Below are positions 41,428 to 47,925 of a stretch of DNA of 64,000 bases, piece by piece. This DNA is from a virus (lineage: Duplodnaviria > Caudoviricetes): positions 1 to 64,000 of the IMG/VR virus record IMGVR_UViG_3300028591_000129. The stretch is one strand, 5' to 3'. The stretch's first letter is position 1. Each line of letters opens with the position of its first letter. The notes beneath the pieces are model-generated. The model saw only the letters and a list, made by a program, of their open reading frames with translations, did no database searches and was not told the origin of the DNA. Position numbers and translations under genes: made by a program.

Positions 41428-41544
41428 TTACTTTTTCTTTTTGCTTTCCTTGTACTTCTTAATCTCGCTCGGCTTGGGCGCAGGGCGCTTCTTTACGAGT
41501 TTTACAGGGTTAAGCAGGTCTCGATTTTCGATTCTCTTTGTCAT
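41428..41544 (-). CDS. 38-aa Lys-rich peptide E (follows the JAB-like gene)
   Basis: MTKRIENRDLLNPVKLVKKRPAPK...; SD GAGGTG at upstream stop. Confidence 0.65.
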   Translation of the reverse strand: MTKRIENRDLLNPVKLVKKRPAPKPSEIKKYKESKKKK

Positions 41545-41549
41545 TTTAA

Positions 41550-42299
41550 TCACCTCTCTAATCCGTATGTGTATCCGTACTTGCCTTGGTTCTCTAACAG
41601 CCAATTGTGAGCATTTATATGTGCCACATTGTTTATCCTGTTCAACTGTGCCACGCAATTGTTATATGCTTGGTCGTTCTGTGTGGCGTACTCGGCGCGA
41701 CTTATCTCACCTCGCACGCACCTATTCCACAACTCCCTTGATAACGCCCTATATTCTCGTGTTATCGGTGACGCTTGTGCACTTGCTGACCTGCTATTCT
41801 CACGTATAAAGTGTGCATAGTCATTAGCAAACGCAACTGCACTTGCGCGGTCAGCAATCATTGCGGGCGACTTGGTTATGCTGTAAGTGCCCTCGGAAGC
41901 AACTGCACGAAATGAAGATATATTGAACCTTGCCCAATTGTTAATATCTGCGTCGCTGAATGTGCCACCAAGTTCGTCACTTGAGTAGCCTGACCTCGGG
42001 TGGATATGTGAAAAATAATCACCATTGATAAATGCTCGTACAGACGACTTAACAGCGCCCTTACCGCCTCTACGTTCCTCAAGCACCGTTCCGTCAGCAG
42101 TTACTACCATACCAAATTCTATCTTGGCGTTCTTACGCTTACTCTCAAACTCTTGTATGCTCCTTGGCATTACGGGGCTTCCGCTATCCGCACTGTATAC
42201 GAGCGGAATATCAACGGTAATCTGACCTCTTGCGCCAAGGTCAACGTCCGTTACGCCTATCGAACGGCTGTTATTATTGTCACTTCCCGAGCTTCCCAT
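41550..42299 (-). CDS. JAB/MPN-like metalloenzyme effector
   Basis: KIEFGMVV...SHIHP...GTFSDAD matches E...HxH...SxxD; starts MGSSG. Confidence 0.7.
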   Translation of the reverse strand: MGSSGSDNNNSRSIGVTDVDLGARGQITVDIPLVYSADSGSPVMPRSIQEFESKRKNAKIEFGMVVTADGTVLEERRGGKGAVKSSVRAFINGDYFSHIHPRSGYSSDELGGTFSDADINNWARFNISSFRAVASEGTYSITKSPAMIADRASAVAFANDYAHFIRENSRSASAQASPITREYRALSRELWNRCVRGEISRAEYATQNDQAYNNCVAQLNRINNVAHINAHNWLLENQGKYGYTYGLER

Positions 42300-42314
42300 T
42301 AGCTTCTTCTCCTG

Positions 42315-42452
42315 TCACTTCTTACTGTTAAGCTTCTTCTTAAGTGCATTGACTGCCTTTGTATTCTTTGTGTTCTTAACAGGATTGTTTGTGTCATTGT
42401 CCGTAGCGACAAACCTCATTTTTGCGTTGTTGTCTCTCTTTGTTCTCGGCAC
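42315..42452 (-). CDS. 45-aa Lys-rich peptide D (RFVAT type)
   Basis: GTG start after AAAGGGGGG; MPRTKRDNNAKMRFVATD... Confidence 0.65.
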   Translation of the reverse strand: MPRTKRDNNAKMRFVATDNDTNNPVKNTKNTKAVNALKKKLNSKK

Positions 42453-42469
42453 TTTCAATTCCCCCCTTT

Positions 42470-43207
42470 TTATAAGATTACGTCTATCTCCAAGTACGCC
42501 GCGTTCTCGCCTCTTGCTGTTGACCACTCACGTACTATCCTCGCGTCACCCGTGAAGTTATAGTGCTGATTTCTCTGCACAAGTACCTCGTGTTCTGCGT
42601 GATTGTTCGTCATTATCGCACCCGTACCCTGTTGGACTACTACCCTAAATCGTACAGGGTATGCGTCGAATGTTCCGTGCCCCTTTGTGTATGTCAGTGA
42701 CGTATATGCACGCTGTGTATAGTCCGTTGACTGCAACACATCTCGAAGTGCACTGCTCATACTCGGGTCTGACGCCATTGCCACTTTAAGCCTGCCAAGC
42801 TCGCTCTCGCTTAATCCGAGTATACGAGAAGCTGACCTCAATGACACGTACCTGTACGCTAACAAGTCCTCTGACATAGGCTTCATACCGTTGTCTATCT
42901 GTGCTATGTCCCGCTTAATGTCGCTCTCGCTGTACCCCAAACGTGTCCAATCACTGTCAGGACTTCCGACCTTGCCTGTGTTCAGATAATAGTTAATATC
43001 GAATGCCTTTGAGGTCTTTACATACACCTTTTTACGGGACGGTGCGTCAGGGTCACCTGCTTCATAGCCTGTCTGACCCATATCATTCTGCAACCTGCGC
43101 ACTTCCTCACGCTGTTCCGACCTTGTAAGCCCCTCTAAATTGGTAGCTTCCTCGAACGGGTCGCGCTCCGAAGCGGTGTTTGTTATACGTTCCCCTCGAC
43201 TGCCCAT
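42470..43207 (-). CDS. ADP-ribosyltransferase-like effector ART4 (ExE)
   Basis: AYR, AYTSLT, EHEVLVQRN; starts MGSRG. Confidence 0.8.
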   Translation of the reverse strand: MGSRGERITNTASERDPFEEATNLEGLTRSEQREEVRRLQNDMGQTGYEAGDPDAPSRKKVYVKTSKAFDINYYLNTGKVGSPDSDWTRLGYSESDIKRDIAQIDNGMKPMSEDLLAYRYVSLRSASRILGLSESELGRLKVAMASDPSMSSALRDVLQSTDYTQRAYTSLTYTKGHGTFDAYPVRFRVVVQQGTGAIMTNNHAEHEVLVQRNQHYNFTGDARIVREWSTARGENAAYLEIDVIL

Positions 43208-43211
43208 TCGA

Positions 43212-43349
43212 TTACTTCTTCACAATCTTAAGCAGACCGTTAGGCATTTTCTCGAACTTCTCGTCAGGCTTAAGCATTCTGCCATATGCAGGTGCGTCAA
43301 ATCCCGACTTCTTTTTTGCGTTCTTCTTCGCTGTCTTCTTGTTAGCCAT
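43212..43349 (-). CDS. 45-aa Lys-rich peptide C (SGFDAPAYG type)
   Basis: MANKKTAKKNAKKKSGFDAPAYG...; own promoter and SD. Confidence 0.75.
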   Translation of the reverse strand: MANKKTAKKNAKKKSGFDAPAYGRMLKPDEKFEKMPNGLLKIVKK

Positions 43350-43380
43350 TACCTTAACCCCTTTCGTGTTGTTTGAGTAT

Positions 43381-43409
43381 ATACTAACATAGTAAGTATA
43401 ATTTGTCAA
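43381..43409 (-). promoter_or_regulatory. sigma-A promoter for peptide C
   Basis: TTGACA-17 bp-TAGTAT with TG extension. Confidence 0.7.
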
Positions 43410-43411
43410 CA

Positions 43412-44170
43412 TTAGCTATAATCGTGCTCGATACGTCTGACGACTTCAAGTACAACACGATACTCGGCGCGTCCGTGTGCTCTTCCGCTACCGCCTACGC
43501 GCTCATATGATACAGGCATAAGAATAAGGTCTCTGTTTAACATAAACTCGCGTTGTCTGTCGCCGTAGTAAGAATTAACGTCGTCGTTACCTAACCACAT
43601 ACCGTAGCCTGTGCCCGACGGAACTCTAATCTCGTACTCAATCTGCTTGTTACTTCCGATTGTGAGACCCTCACGTGCCGCACCCGTAGACATATTACCT
43701 CTTGAATATATTTCCTGTCCTATCATACGCTGTATATCCTCTTCCGTTGCTGTCCTGTTTCCTTTTCCCAACAATAACTCAGCCGTTGCACGACGGTGTA
43801 CCACAAAAGGGGTATTAATCGTTGAACGGTCAAGGTACTTATCGTATATCCGAGTGGCGTCTTGGTCTTCCTTGTCCATTTTACTGAAACCCTCGTACTG
43901 CTGTCCGTCCATAAAATGACCATATACCCAAGTGTGGTCAAATGCTAACCACTCGTCACGGTCTTTATTTATCTCGTCATAAAGCTCTTGGGCATTACTA
44001 TGCTCCAAGAACCAACGATTAGTCGCGCCCCCGTCACGCTCATAATTATGCGTATCCGAGTGCCGACTATCGAATGTTTTATATTCGTCCTTGTCCTTGC
44101 GTCTTACAGGCAGTTCACCGCCCGATACTGCGCCTGTGCTCCCCGCAGAAACTCTTCCTGTACTTCCCAC
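43412..44170 (-). CDS. ADP-ribosyltransferase-like effector ART3 (QxE)
   Basis: VHRR, GNMSTG, QREFMLNRD; starts MGSTG. Confidence 0.8.
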   Translation of the reverse strand: MGSTGRVSAGSTGAVSGGELPVRRKDKDEYKTFDSRHSDTHNYERDGGATNRWFLEHSNAQELYDEINKDRDEWLAFDHTWVYGHFMDGQQYEGFSKMDKEDQDATRIYDKYLDRSTINTPFVVHRRATAELLLGKGNRTATEEDIQRMIGQEIYSRGNMSTGAAREGLTIGSNKQIEYEIRVPSGTGYGMWLGNDDVNSYYGDRQREFMLNRDLILMPVSYERVGGSGRAHGRAEYRVVLEVVRRIEHDYS

Positions 44171-44195
44171 GGCTAATTCTCCTTACACCAAATGC

Positions 44196-44357
44196 TTATT
44201 TCTTTGCTCCCTTGGGTGGTATCATTCTGTATGTTCCGTCGGGAAGCTTCTTGTATGTTGTTCCCTTGGGTACGATTTCACCGTAAGCGGGTGCGTCGAA
44301 ACCGCTCTTTCTCTCTGTTGCCTTTGTGTTCTTCTTTGTTGTTTTCTTATTTGCCAT
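44196..44357 (-). CDS. 53-aa Lys-rich peptide B (SGFDAPAYG type; not in ORF track)
   Basis: Hand-translated MANKKTTKKNTKATERKSGFDAPAYGEIVPKGTTYKKLPDGTYRMIPPKGAKK; SD AAGGAGG. Confidence 0.75.
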   Translation of the reverse strand: MANKKTTKKNTKATERKSGFDAPAYGEIVPKGTTYKKLPDGTYRMIPPKGAKK

Positions 44358-44387
44358 TTTTAGTTCCTCCTTGTATTGTTTGAGTAT

Positions 44388-44416
44388 ATACTAACATAGT
44401 AAGTATAGTTTGTCAA
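44388..44416 (-). promoter_or_regulatory. sigma-A promoter for peptide B
   Basis: TTGACA-17 bp-TAGTAT, nearly identical to the promoter at 43381. Confidence 0.7.
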
Positions 44417-44419
44417 CTA

Positions 44420-45175
44420 TTAATCGTAATTATGTGGCTGTCTGCCTATATACTCAAGAATTACACGATATTCAGGCGCGGTATCCCACGTCCTATCTTC
44501 AATATCTTGCCTCTCACTTTGTGATATACGCTCATAACCAACTATACGATATGCAGTGTCTCTATTCAGCATAAATTCACGTTGTTGGTCTCCCCAAGTA
44601 GGGTTTACACTATTGTGTCCTATATACATTCCTGCACCAACAGAGCCCGCAGGGATACGGATAGTATAGTCAATAGGCTTGGAAGCGCCTCTTCCGATAG
44701 TAAGTCCGTCTGCCGCTGCTCCCGTAGACATATTACCGAGAGATATGACCTCATTACCTACTGCATTACGCAACATTTCTTCAGTAACACTGCGTCTGCC
44801 CTCTCCGAATAATAACTCGGGCGTAGCTCGTCTATGTACTTCAACGCCCTCATTAATGACGGAACGGTCAAGAATATTATCGTAAATACGCGTGTATGTC
44901 TGTCTTGTGTCGTCCATATCAGAGAACTTGCCATACTGTTGACCGCCCATAAAATGACCACGTTCCCAATAGTCAAACGCGTTCAAATGCGCCCTCACCT
45001 CGGGGTATAACTCTTCAACATTAGAATTTTGTTCAAACCAACGGTAGGTTGCACCTCGGTCACTTTCATAATTATGTGTGCCCTCTGCTTCCCACTTAAA
45101 TTGGTGGTACTTGCCGTCACTTGCACCCGCAAGCATTCGACTTCCCTTATTTTCGTTACCCCCTGTGCTTCCCAC
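44420..45175 (-). CDS. ADP-ribosyltransferase-like effector ART2 (QxE), paralog of ART3
   Basis: VHRR, GNMSTG, QREFMLNRD; starts MGSTG. Confidence 0.8.
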   Translation of the reverse strand: MGSTGGNENKGSRMLAGASDGKYHQFKWEAEGTHNYESDRGATYRWFEQNSNVEELYPEVRAHLNAFDYWERGHFMGGQQYGKFSDMDDTRQTYTRIYDNILDRSVINEGVEVHRRATPELLFGEGRRSVTEEMLRNAVGNEVISLGNMSTGAAADGLTIGRGASKPIDYTIRIPAGSVGAGMYIGHNSVNPTWGDQQREFMLNRDTAYRIVGYERISQSERQDIEDRTWDTAPEYRVILEYIGRQPHNYD

Positions 45176-45200
45176 GGCTAATTCTCCTTATCCTGACTAA

Positions 45201-45305
45201 TTACTTCTTCTCGGGCTTCTTCTTTCCCTTGGTAATTGTCATTCCTTTGCCTGTTGCAACAAAGCGAGCTTTTGCTTTCTTTGTATCTTCCTTGATATTT
45301 GCCAT
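45201..45305 (-). CDS. 34-aa Lys-rich peptide A (RFVAT type; not in ORF track)
   Basis: Hand-translated MANIKEDTKKAKARFVATGKGMTITKGKKKPEKK; SD AAAGGGG. Confidence 0.7.
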   Translation of the reverse strand: MANIKEDTKKAKARFVATGKGMTITKGKKKPEKK

Positions 45306-45334
45306 TTCCGACTTCCCCTTTCTCGTTTTCTTAC

Positions 45335-45362
45335 ATTATATCACGGTAATTACTACTGTCAA
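45335..45362 (-). promoter_or_regulatory. sigma-A promoter for peptide A
   Basis: TTGACA-16 bp-TATAAT with TG extension; -35 overlaps the ART1 stop codon. Confidence 0.7.
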
Positions 45363-46057
45363 GGCACTGTCTCTACGGATATAATCAACTGTCTTCCGTC
45401 GGCGGACACTTGTATATCATTAATGCCATAACCGACATTACGGGACAGCACGCACTCCGATTCCATTCCTGTCGGACTGAATATGGCGGGTGTACCCGCT
45501 TTTGCGTCGATATTTATGCGTACTCTACGATACGAGAACTCCGAATCGGTCAAGGACGTGTCATATGTTGTTGACATATATGCGTGCTCACGCACAAAGT
45601 CACCAAGAAGCACCCTGCGAAGCTCTGCTACGTCATTTTCGTCGAACTTTCTAAAGCCTTTTGAGGCGTCCATAAGGCGTCCTCTCACGTCGTCGTCCAA
45701 CTCTGCCCCACCGTTCGTTATCAAATTCTCTAAATAGCCATTATCCGCCATTCGGACTAACTCAATATCTTTGTTGAGTGGAAGCATACTTTTGTCCATT
45801 GCGTCTATCGTCCTGTATGCCTCTGCAAGCTCGTCCTCGTCACCATATTCAAGCTCAAGTGACGCGCGTACGCTTATTCCGTCGGCTACCGCGTCTCGTA
45901 ATGCGCCGTTAATCTTCCACGAGTTTGCAGACTGAAAATAGCCCGAGTTATATATGCCTGACCTGTGCACCATATGTGTAAAGTCGTCGGGGTTTATCTT
46001 CGTATAATGTGTATCTACGTCCGAGTAGTTATCTTTGCTACCGCCTGAACTGCCCAT
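45359..46057 (-). CDS. ADP-ribosyltransferase-like effector ART1 (ExE)
   Basis: LVR, AYMSTT, ESECVLSRN; start reassigned to MGSSG (TAATG overlap with upstream ORF). Confidence 0.82.
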   Translation of the reverse strand: MGSSGGSKDNYSDVDTHYTKINPDDFTHMVHRSGIYNSGYFQSANSWKINGALRDAVADGISVRASLELEYGDEDELAEAYRTIDAMDKSMLPLNKDIELVRMADNGYLENLITNGGAELDDDVRGRLMDASKGFRKFDENDVAELRRVLLGDFVREHAYMSTTYDTSLTDSEFSYRRVRINIDAKAGTPAIFSPTGMESECVLSRNVGYGINDIQVSADGRQLIISVETVP

Positions 46058-46416: not shown

Positions 46417-46448
46417 AAAAGTGCCTCAAGCGAACTCAAGGCACTTTA
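46417..46448 (-). terminator. Intrinsic terminator after the TROVE-like gene
   Basis: AAAGTGCCT / AGGCACTTT inverted repeat with T-run. Confidence 0.65.
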
Positions 46449-46452
46449 TATC

Positions 46453-47925
46453 TCACGCTGTTATGTCCTTATACCTGTCAGACGCAAGAATTTCATTCAT
46501 AACGTCCAACGGTGTCTTCCCCAAGTTATCCATTACCTGCTTCATAATGTTCGGTGAGTATCCTGACACGAGGGACACGCAACTGTCCGACATAGACGCG
46601 TGGTAAGTAGGGTTGACCGCATTCACGTTCCAATAGATAACGTGAGGCAGTCTGTACCCTGCACGCTCGTACTCACCGCGTACGACGTCAGTGAACGTCA
46701 TAAAGCCGTCACTATCACAGCCACGGACACAGTCTACCTGCATATCGGATATGACACAGATAGCTTCAGGCATTTCGTCAGGGTCGATATGATACTTAAC
46801 GCCTATCTCAAGTATCCTGTCAAAGACAGCCTTGAGGTTAGTGGAATTACCCCACTCGGAACGATGTACGTCTTCGTACATTTGCCCAAGCGTCTCACCT
46901 TTAATCTCTTTGAGCGTAGGTGTGCTTGAGAAAGTAAAGAACTTGTCCTTGAACTCACCGACGTTGTTCTGTGCGAAGTAGATACCAAGAGAGATAGCAA
47001 CCGTGAGCGGTGACATACCGCCACGCCCCCAAGTCATTGAGCCTGAAGTATCCACGACGGCAAGGGCTCTTGTCGTGACCTTGGGTAACTGTGCCCACAT
47101 AGTGTTTATCTCGACAGAGTTATCACCCTTGACCACTTTCTGCATAATGTCACACGGATTAGCCGTCGCCATATTCATTTTGGCGTCACCTGTCTTGACC
47201 TTGGAAATGTACGCGGTGTATCTTTCCCCGTCGTGCCTCTTGAACGCTTCCCTGTTCTGCACGTTACACTTTGAGGGGACTGTCTCGTAGTCAATCTCGC
47301 CCCAACGGTTCGTGGACATTTTAGCTTCAGGGGTGTCTATCGCTTTTCTCAAGGCAACAAGGGCTTTCCTGTACACTGACATAGTCTTAAAGGAATACCC
47401 TAACTTCTTGGCTGTAAGCTTACCTAACTCTGCTGTCTTCTTTGAGGACGCATTCGGTGTGGCAAGCCACTTCGAGAGCAAGGATACAGGCTTGCCCTCC
47501 GCGAGGTTATGCAAGTCTCTGCGGTACTGACAGGCAATGAAGTCCCACATAGCGTTCTCGGCAGGTGTCCCTATGAGACTGTACAAGTCTTTAGCTCGAC
47601 CAAACTCAAGCACGTTGGGAATGTTCTTGACGACGCTGTCAGTATGCGTCTCCGCCAAGTGAGCGAAAATCTGATTAAAGGCGTCTCTCTCCCCAAGCCC
47701 GCCACGAATGTCACGGGCATAGAACAACAGCTTCATAGCACTGTCCTTATCTTCCTTATACGCCTCGTCGAACAGGTCACATTTAGCGTACGCAGACGCC
47801 CCGCGAAGAGCGCCCACTCTCCCAAGGAAGTCAAGACACCTGTTCGAAGTAGACGTAAGGCAGTCAGCCCCATTCCACGTCTTGCCGTGTGTCAGTTCAA
47901 TGTTAAACGCGTCAGAAAAATTCAT
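46453..47925 (-). CDS. TROVE-like helical domain plus vWA protein (DUF2828-type)
   Basis: TWNGA...CLDF, LFYARDIRGGLGER, SLLSKW, MIDAS DTSGSM, TNL, ISDMQ, YWNV, VSGYSP. Confidence 0.85.
   Translation of the reverse strand: MNFSDAFNIELTHGKTWNGADCLTSTSNRCLDFLGRVGALRGASAYAKCDLFDEAYKEDKDSAMKLLFYARDIRGGLGERDAFNQIFAHLAETHTDSVVKNIPNVLEFGRAKDLYSLIGTPAENAMWDFIACQYRRDLHNLAEGKPVSLLSKWLATPNASSKKTAELGKLTAKKLGYSFKTMSVYRKALVALRKAIDTPEAKMSTNRWGEIDYETVPSKCNVQNREAFKRHDGERYTAYISKVKTGDAKMNMATANPCDIMQKVVKGDNSVEINTMWAQLPKVTTRALAVVDTSGSMTWGRGGMSPLTVAISLGIYFAQNNVGEFKDKFFTFSSTPTLKEIKGETLGQMYEDVHRSEWGNSTNLKAVFDRILEIGVKYHIDPDEMPEAICVISDMQVDCVRGCDSDGFMTFTDVVRGEYERAGYRLPHVIYWNVNAVNPTYHASMSDSCVSLVSGYSPNIMKQVMDNLGKTPLDVMNEILASDRYKDITA

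Follow-up and report, generated by a model that had tools for sequence, protein, structure and literature searches.

A phage-specific glycine-rich N-terminal label on tandem arrays of unrelated effector enzymes in Bacillota siphophages, and its possible role in capsid loading

Five consecutive minus-strand genes that all begin with the motif M-G-S-[S/T/R]-G, hereafter the tag, are found in the window considered here, the first 64 kb of the 104,810-bp IMG/VR record IMGVR_UViG_3300028591_000129 of an uncultured gut phage, which CheckV rates as complete. All genes of the window lie on the minus strand. The five starts had been placed by an initial annotation made from the letters of the sequence, and our re-reading confirmed their coordinates and strand. 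We refer to the encoded proteins as effectors 1 to 5, and their genes, with lengths in amino acids (aa), are as follows.

45359..46057 (-): effector 1, ATG start at 46057, beginning MGSSGG (tag MGSSG at 46057-46043); 232-aa ADP-ribosyltransferase (ART), PF03496 at E 9e-12
44420..45175 (-): effector 2, GTG start at 45175, beginning MGSTGG (tag MGSTG at 45175-45161); 251-aa ART-like protein of cargo cluster 2 (see below), PF03496 at 21.7 bits
43412..44170 (-): effector 3, GTG start at 44170, beginning MGSTGR (tag MGSTG at 44170-44156); 252-aa ART-like paralog of effector 2, PF03496 at 24.0 bits
42470..43207 (-): effector 4, ATG start at 43207, beginning MGSRGE (tag MGSRG at 43207-43193); 245-aa ADP-ribosyltransferase, PF03496 at E 6.5e-11
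41550..42299 (-): effector 5, ATG start at 42299, beginning MGSSGS (tag MGSSG at 42299-42285); 249-aa JAB/MPN-like metallopeptidase with a C-terminal helical hairpin, tentatively assigned by motif, AlphaFold2 model and Foldseek

Indeed, the tag spans two different enzyme folds, as had been proposed. Effectors 1-4 match PF03496, with effectors 1, 3 and 4 above the family cut-off of 23.4 bits and effector 2 just below it, and a Pfam search of all five proteins returned PF03496 or nothing, none of them carrying a MuF domain. Effector 5, for which no Pfam match was found, displays an E...HxHP...S..D motif (E61, H98, H100, P101, S115 and D118) that is invariant in 42 homologs, with an HxH-to-S spacing longer than in the JAB/MPN (JAMM) metal site. 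Its AlphaFold2 model reaches a mean confidence score (pLDDT) of 93.7, and the top Foldseek matches are all JAB/MPN proteins (PfJAMM1, RadC, Cap3 and Rpn11), at weak E-values of 0.02-0.5. Effectors 2 and 3 are 48% identical and effectors 1 and 4 share 27% identity over 129 aa, effector 5 being unrelated to the others. The earlier description of an unrelated flexible segment behind each tag is broadly right, but does not extend to these two related pairs, nor to effector 5, where disorder is confined to residues 1-11.

No other real gene begins with the tag within the window, as the initial annotation had noticed, or in the whole genome: a six-frame scan for a start codon followed by G-S-x-G yielded six matches in the window and seven in the whole genome, five of which are the effector starts, with the remaining two opening trivial frames of 7 and 47 codons. 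By chance, 0.02-0.06 such starts would be expected, as calculated from how often the residues occur at positions 2, 3 and 5 of 190 crudely chosen open reading frames (ORFs). AGGAG-type ribosome sites are present at starts 2, 3 and 5, and starts 1, 4 and 5 overlap or closely trail the stop of a small upstream ORF, start 1 in the form TAATG.

Orthologs at 59-74% identity retain the tag exactly, with the residues that follow varying; in P0002 and P0003, orthologs of effector 1 that are 59% identical overall, MGSSGGSK is retained without change. For effector 4, an exhaustive, profile-free search of a library of 1.8 billion proteins gave 50 representatives, of which nearly all short ones begin MG..G, MGGRG or MAK..RGG, and two long ones, P0157 and P0161, are fusions of MuF and ART. 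Analogously, the 280 homologs found for effector 5 carry Gly-rich tags, the commonest starts among the 120 listed being MGGRG, MGRGS, MGSTG, MGRGR, MGSRG and MGSSG, followed by MAKGS and similar forms. Aggregated, metagenomic homologs of both folds nearly always possess a related Gly-rich N-terminus (MGSTGK, MGGRGSS, MGRGSSK or MAKxxRGG). Since effector-4 and effector-5 homologs both show Gly-rich starts, the same kind of N-terminus is present on two unrelated folds across many independent metagenomes.

Further JAB-like relatives were also recovered. Three long proteins, P0176-P0178 (937-1092 aa), combine the JAB-like part with PF14550 (XkdF-like phage peptidase) and 2H phosphoesterase domains and resemble phage 'polyvalent proteins'. 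Untagged JAB-like homologs (MKTTK...) occur in L004 (394 kb) and L005 (332 kb), amid lipoprotein-like genes and far from the packaging genes.

Loci were retrieved with JAB-like and ART alignments. In 22 phage loci, tagged genes are arranged in tandem, one to nine per phage, adjoining packaging or head genes. The usual order is DUF4417 or ParB_N-DUF4417, the array, the small and large terminase genes (TerS and TerL), portal, short MuF, scaffold and coat, and no copies of the tag were found within structural proteins of the same loci. The tags of individual arrays include the following.

L007: four MGRGSSKAGGGG genes
L014: four MGGRG genes
L016: four MAKGxSKAGGGG genes
L019: four or five MAKPTRGG genes
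L031: nine MAKGxSKxGGGG genes
L026: three MGSRGGGG genes
L027: three MGS[V/I]GA genes
L029: one MGSSGK and one MGSTGA gene

The largest array, L031:2915-7535 (contig JAFYZR010000034.1 of a metagenome-assembled genome), comprises nine tandem genes of 104-226 aa that all open with MAKG[NASTx]SK..GGG, the remainder of the proteins being for the most part unrelated; the assembly, binned as Paludibacteraceae, may here contain a mis-binned phage contig.

Three of these loci, L026, L027 and L029, are of the same clade as the window phage, and the TerL proteins of L027 and L029 are 65-67% identical to that of the window phage. These relatives use MGSxG-type tags, and the complete members of the clade are without DUF4417 and MuF. 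In the window genome the tagged array is followed downstream by an SPP1-gp6-like portal (38721-36847 (-)), a scaffold protein, a major head protein and a 1757-aa tape measure protein, with TerS and TerL beyond the window at about 74.2-71.7 kb of the genome. The nearest cultured relatives of the portal are those of Clostridioides, Faecalibacterium and Ruminococcus phages, at 30-37% identity. No match to MuF (PF04233), DUF4417 or ParB_N was found anywhere in the complete genome. Tagged tandem arrays adjoin the packaging or head genes of Bacillota (Clostridia, Streptococcus) siphophages.

DUF4417 or ParB-DUF4417 stands beside the array in L007, L008, L016, L044, L046, L088 and L103. As an obligatory partner of the tag it is rejected for the window lineage, as DUF4417 was found neither in the window genome nor in its complete relatives G002 and G004. 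DUF4417 precedes the terminase in hundreds of phages, many mycobacteriophages among them.

The tag follows the phage and not the cargo. We trimmed the first 30 residues from 65 tagged ORFs, chosen by regular expression and manual curation, and obtained 18 cargo clusters, the largest being JAB-like (18 members), ART (11), ART-like (7) and an unknown family (7), with many tag types in each. Clusters 0, 1 and 2 mix effectors of the window with GGRG-, GRGSSK- and MAK-tagged members, and in cluster 2 the tags found in other phages are MGGRG, MAKPTRGG, MGNGK and MGSVG. One cluster represents PF15644, the Tox-PL1 glutamine deamidase (array members in L014 and L046), and one matches a PHROG called 'zinc-finger protease'; the range of cargo under the tags consequently covers ART, JAB-like peptidase, Tox-PL1, a domain resembling zinc proteases and a dozen or more unknowns. 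In this set, identity over residues 2-9 amounts to 0.65 for different cargo in the same phage (n=91), compared with 0.24 when one cargo is matched between phages (n=225) and 0.22 in unrelated pairs.

Moreover, 274 of the 500 identical residues at positions 2-10 within arrays (55%) are encoded by different codons, as are 21 of 37 in the window, and the upstream ribosome-site regions differ among tagged genes. Such codon variety beneath an unchanged peptide places selection at the level of the protein. The scrambled synonymous sites and the differing upstream regions rule out gene conversion, a recombination box, an RNA motif and start-codon context as the cause of the tag. Copies of the label are alike within one phage but not between phages, and protein-level selection maintains them. 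M-G-S-x-G is the form taken in the window lineage by this short Gly-rich label, behind which come a low-complexity linker and then an exchangeable effector or toxin domain.

Outside the window, the same genome holds a 173-aa ORF that begins MGAVGVHTGRG (G000:C1 75192-74671 (-)) and has a good AGGAG site. It is flanked by a homolog of a small 'KKLQxAxN' protein on one side and by TerS/TerL on the other, shortly before the small terminase gene, and occupies the slot where the relatives L027 and L029 hold tagged genes. Its cargo part matches none of the 18 cargo clusters, and it may be a sixth tagged protein of this phage.

Within the window, each effector gene is accompanied by a Lys-rich micro-ORF, and the array is equipped with its own transcription signals, listed here from the upstream edge.

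46418..46447 (-): terminator-like hairpin bounding the module upstream
46361-46212 and 46206-46057 (-): two small basic ORFs ahead of effector 1, from sequence reading, the stop of the second overlapping the effector ATG (TAATG)
45335..45362 (-): sigma-70/sigma-A-type promoter, 12/12 consensus with extended -10, between effector 1 and its micro-ORF
45201..45305 (-): Lys-rich micro-ORF after effector 1, 34 aa, RFVAT motif
44388..44416 (-): promoter-like site, 10/12, with TG, between effector 2 and its micro-ORF
44196..44357 (-): Lys-rich micro-ORF after effector 2, 53 aa, FDAP motif
43381..43409 (-): promoter-like site, 10/12, with TG, between effector 3 and its micro-ORF
43212..43349 (-): Lys-rich micro-ORF after effector 3, 45 aa, FDAP motif
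42315..42452 (-): Lys-rich micro-ORF after effector 4, about 45 aa, RFVAT motif, its GTG start at 42452 being deduced from a G-rich ribosome site
41428..41544 (-): Lys-rich micro-ORF after effector 5, 38 aa
41397..41423 (-): terminator-like hairpin bounding the module downstream

The motif of the micro-ORF tracks the class of the preceding cargo, cluster-2 ARTs being trailed by FDAP and cluster-1 ARTs by RFVAT. Such class-matched Lys-rich micro-ORFs are present behind each window effector and in loci L025-L029, including RFV[AS]T-like peptides behind the cluster-1 ARTs of L026 and L029 and an FDAP peptide behind the cluster-2 ART of L027. Judged by placement and motif, they are candidate cognate inhibitors of the preceding effectors. 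In other arrays, each tagged Tox-PL1 (Gln_amidase) toxin has behind it a conserved ORF of 75-85 aa whose product begins M(I)TFE(D/E)A.K (L014:11503-11754, L014:12460-12717, a 76-aa ORF in L046 and a 75-aa ORF in L037), and these ORFs likely encode immunity proteins.

What is such a label for? We favor a role in capsid loading and delivery, in which the tag would mark effectors for the head in place of a MuF fusion, and assign this reading a probability of roughly 0.5. A head-loading label is the best explanation because the array adjoins packaging genes, the tag is phage-specific, the cargo families match those known or predicted in phage heads (ART, Tox-PL1 and JAB/RadC) and T4 offers a precedent. 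Indeed, Tox-PL1 has been described fused to MuF (PMC3482391), JAB/RadC and ART are found in polyvalent proteins, Alt is packaged and injected, and MuF is fused to effector domains (PMC5512222), and a 10-residue N-terminal capsid targeting sequence (CTS) of T4 loads diverse cargo into the head (PMC9026906). Furthermore, the ART cargo has 'minor head protein' matches in Enterococcus phages.

The initial annotation had likewise proposed a sorting signal that lets interchangeable effectors be delivered without a MuF fusion, and its account of T4 internal proteins, Alt and MuF head proteins agrees with the literature (PMC9026906, PMC5512222). Congruent with that proposal, homologous ARTs exist elsewhere as MuF fusions (P0157 and P0161) while the window genome has no MuF. 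What stands of the sorting signal is a signal at the level of the protein, not tied to the catalytic domain, on interchangeable effectors; the variant in which the exposed N-terminal Gly is modified is disfavored, as detailed below.

In molecular terms, loading might proceed as follows. Removal of the start Met, or in many relatives cleavage of an L27-like leader by the host protease Prp, would generate a free Gly-rich end that acts as an address label. Within the head under assembly, a phage-specific receptor, in this phage not MuF but the coat, scaffold or portal protein, would bind this label, and the label-bound enzymes would be enclosed in the head, entering the next host together with the DNA. 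The label would then do the job of the MuF fusion in other phages and of the capsid targeting sequence in T4, with the small cargo-matched basic peptides keeping the enzymes harmless in the producing cell. More tentatively, and in our view somewhat short of even odds, Bacillota phages may possess a general, encapsulin-like type of cargo loading, where a lineage-specific Gly-rich label of 5-15 residues, exposed by Met excision or Prp, docks any enzyme inside an HK97-type procapsid. With neither a MuF fusion nor a prohead protease, such phages would then inject, together with the DNA, the products of arrays of as many as nine exchangeable genes for toxins or enzymes of host takeover, each kept in check by its own micro-peptide.

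Several observations weigh against capsid loading. With its five conserved residues, the tag is very short for a site of specific docking. As no match to the prohead protease families S77, S78 and ClpP (PF03420, PF04586 and PF00574) was found in the complete genome, T4-style processing of the tag is not applicable. The array is a separate unit, with flanking terminator-like hairpins and its own consensus host-type promoters, and may be transcribed independently of the head operon; it has the head genes on one side and a cassette region that looks early on the other, and early expression with action inside the current host is a possible fit to this layout. T4 ModA and ModB provide a comparison for early effectors of this kind. 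In streptococcal prophages, a JAB-like homolog (PHROG 5057) is found right after ParB-DUF4417 (L144:6076-6822 in the S. pneumoniae prophage IPP55 and L145:6265-7080 in Javan394 of S. parauberis), and in both the GGRG is internal, preceded by some 65 aa that form a conserved N-terminal domain, meaning that a free N-terminus is not universal unless this domain is cleaved. The choice of ORFs by regular expression and curation favors Gly-rich starts, somewhat inflating the within-phage similarity of 0.65, although it does so generally and does not favor within-phage identity as such. Finally, neither megablast of the array region nor tblastn of effectors 2, 4 and 5 gave a match in the GenBank phages (50,697 records), and IMG/VR searches with effector 1 and with the portal revealed no close relative of the window.

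Comparison with established systems places a head-loading label in perspective. The T4 CTS, carried by the internal proteins IPI-III and Alt, is similarly a short N-terminal peptide on unrelated, fast-evolving proteins, including an ART, and in T4 is enough to bring foreign cargo into the head, from which it is injected (PMC9026906, PMC5512222). It shows however no sequence similarity to the tag; it is cut in T4 by the prohead protease gp21 (at an L/I-x-E site), whereas the window genome has no S77, S78 or ClpP protease; and the tagged systems are those of Bacillota siphophages, not of T4-like myophages. The MuF-fused polymorphic toxins of temperate phages (Zhang et al. 2012, PMC3482391; Jamet et al. 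2017, PMC5576092) share with the arrays the ART and Tox-PL1 cargo, the small downstream partner genes and the position in the head/packaging module. The effectors here are in contrast standalone, with a tag of 5-15 residues instead of a MuF domain of roughly 300 aa, and are organised in arrays of up to nine; standalone tagged effectors are not mentioned in either of the two papers. More broadly, we found no description of tagged arrays in the literature on tag motifs, MuF toxins, capsid targeting and DUF4417, and the tag and its arrays are apparently undescribed.

A further parallel is given by the cargo-loading peptides of encapsulins, which are short, terminal and Gly/Ser-containing, come with a flexible linker and dock diverse enzymes inside an HK97-fold shell. 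They are usually C-terminal, follow another consensus and belong to a compartment of the cell, not to a virion; the likeness to the phage tag is by analogy only.

If the label indeed is a head-loading signal, gut Bacillota phages would contain a large hidden class of injected effectors, identifiable from the first few residues of genes that are now annotated only as hypothetical proteins. It would also explain how phages without MuF fusions deliver ARTs and peptidases, and provide a very short portable tag, like the T4 CTS, for packing foreign proteins into siphophage capsids. Whatever the function, an N-terminal code that is specific to the phage and shared by unrelated enzymes calls for a receptor, which is worth finding.

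The proposed exposure of the label by Prp derives from a leader, such as MNMNLQLF or MELNLQQF, that immediately precedes GGRG in a few homologs. A back-translated N-L-Q-x-F-G-G-R-G pattern hit at least 110 viral stretches, against a very rough estimate of a few tens of chance matches, and in 82 of the 83 matches examined NLQxF-GGRG is at the very N-terminus, 6-30 residues from the start of ORFs of 16-260 aa. Leader and leaderless MGGRG forms are present side by side in L037, L040, L088 and L103. The leader of these relatives matches the published Prp site of pro-L27, MLxx(D/N)LQ(F/L)F↓A(S/H)KK (arrow, cleavage position), and the leaders of the 80alpha coat and scaffold proteins, on which Prp is also used (PMC9405229, PMC5744158); a scaffold-like ORF in L040 itself bears an LKLQFF↓AT leader.

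The xxNLQFF leader of many relatives sits exactly where leaderless forms have Met-1, and the predicted cut (NLQFF↓GGRG) would leave GGRG..., the same end as removal of Met on the leaderless forms. The residues following the cut differ nevertheless, being GGRG in the relatives and A(S/H)KK in pro-L27, and the window phage has no leader, as no match to a Prp-type leader (xx(D/N)LQ(F/L)F) was found in any frame of its genome. The window version is a leaderless GSxG variant without DUF4417 or MuF. The role of Prp use in 80alpha is still called unclear (PMC5744158), and a shared mature end of both forms, if true, suggests a reason for the use of host Prp by phages.

Among the alternatives to capsid loading, the one that survives best, though we hold it to be unlikely, is that the tag works in the cell, as a handle for a machine that processes, activates, localises or restrains the enzymes, the effectors being early host-takeover factors. 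Examples would be association with Prp or the ribosome via mimicry of the L27 N-terminus, or a substrate site for the neighboring DUF4417 enzyme. Such a function is supported by the exact copying of the L27-type leader in many relatives, by DUF4417 or ParB-DUF4417 as the constant upstream neighbor in the GGRG, GRGSSK and MAK classes, by the MAK..RGG tags, which we take to resemble the mature L27 N-terminus loosely, and by the window array having consensus promoters and terminators of its own. The tag is however kept although the window genome, G002 and G004 are without DUF4417 and the window genome is without a Prp-type leader, and the adjacency to DUF4417 may be positional only, given how many phages have it ahead of the terminase. 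Moreover, a conserved host target would not predict such divergence of the tag between phages with the same cargo.

Less probable again is a polymorphic toxin array directed at neighboring bacteria, with the tag as a signal for export or release by a route other than the capsid. Toxin-like cargo is followed by small, putatively cognate genes, namely the 76-85-aa ORFs after Tox-PL1 and the class-matched micro-ORFs of the window, and the diversity of the cargo is cassette-like. Secretion genes are on the other hand not present nearby, the tag is not known to resemble any Sec, Tat, type VII secretion system or double-glycine leader, and the arrays adjoin terminase and head genes in lytic-type genomes too.

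It is also improbable, to a greater degree still, that the tag has no function of its own and is a relic of common descent, of cassette recombination or of a favorable translation-start context. The paralogy of effectors 2/3 and 1/4 would be congruent with such an origin, as would the Ser codon, which is AGY in all five tags. The fold of effector 5 is however unrelated, the synonymous sites of the tag are scrambled, 15 nt is too short for homologous recombination and the regions around the ribosome sites differ. The tag is furthermore kept in 59%-identical orthologs while the next residues change, and unrelated cargo in 22 loci shows the same pattern.

Covalent modification of the exposed N-terminal Gly (acylation or ligation) as the signal, which the initial annotation had put forward, is very unlikely, for although Gly-2 favors Met removal and the predicted Prp cleavage would also leave an N-terminal Gly, the same cargo families bear MAK... 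tags without Gly-2, the GGRG is internal in the streptococcal forms (IPP55 and Javan394) and no transferase gene is conserved beside the arrays in the window lineage. N-myristoylation of the eukaryotic kind, considered for the likeness to MGxxxS/T, is rejected in view of the bacterial host, the MAK tags without Gly-2 and a fit of only three of the five tags to the consensus. A cloning artefact resembling the MGSS of pET vectors is equally rejected, in light of the native phage flanks and the orthologs in independent metagenomes.

The gene directly upstream of the array (window 46453-47925 (-)) encodes a DUF2828/DUF7788 protein that belongs to PHROG 850, 'RNA-binding protein', and is TROVE/vWA-like.

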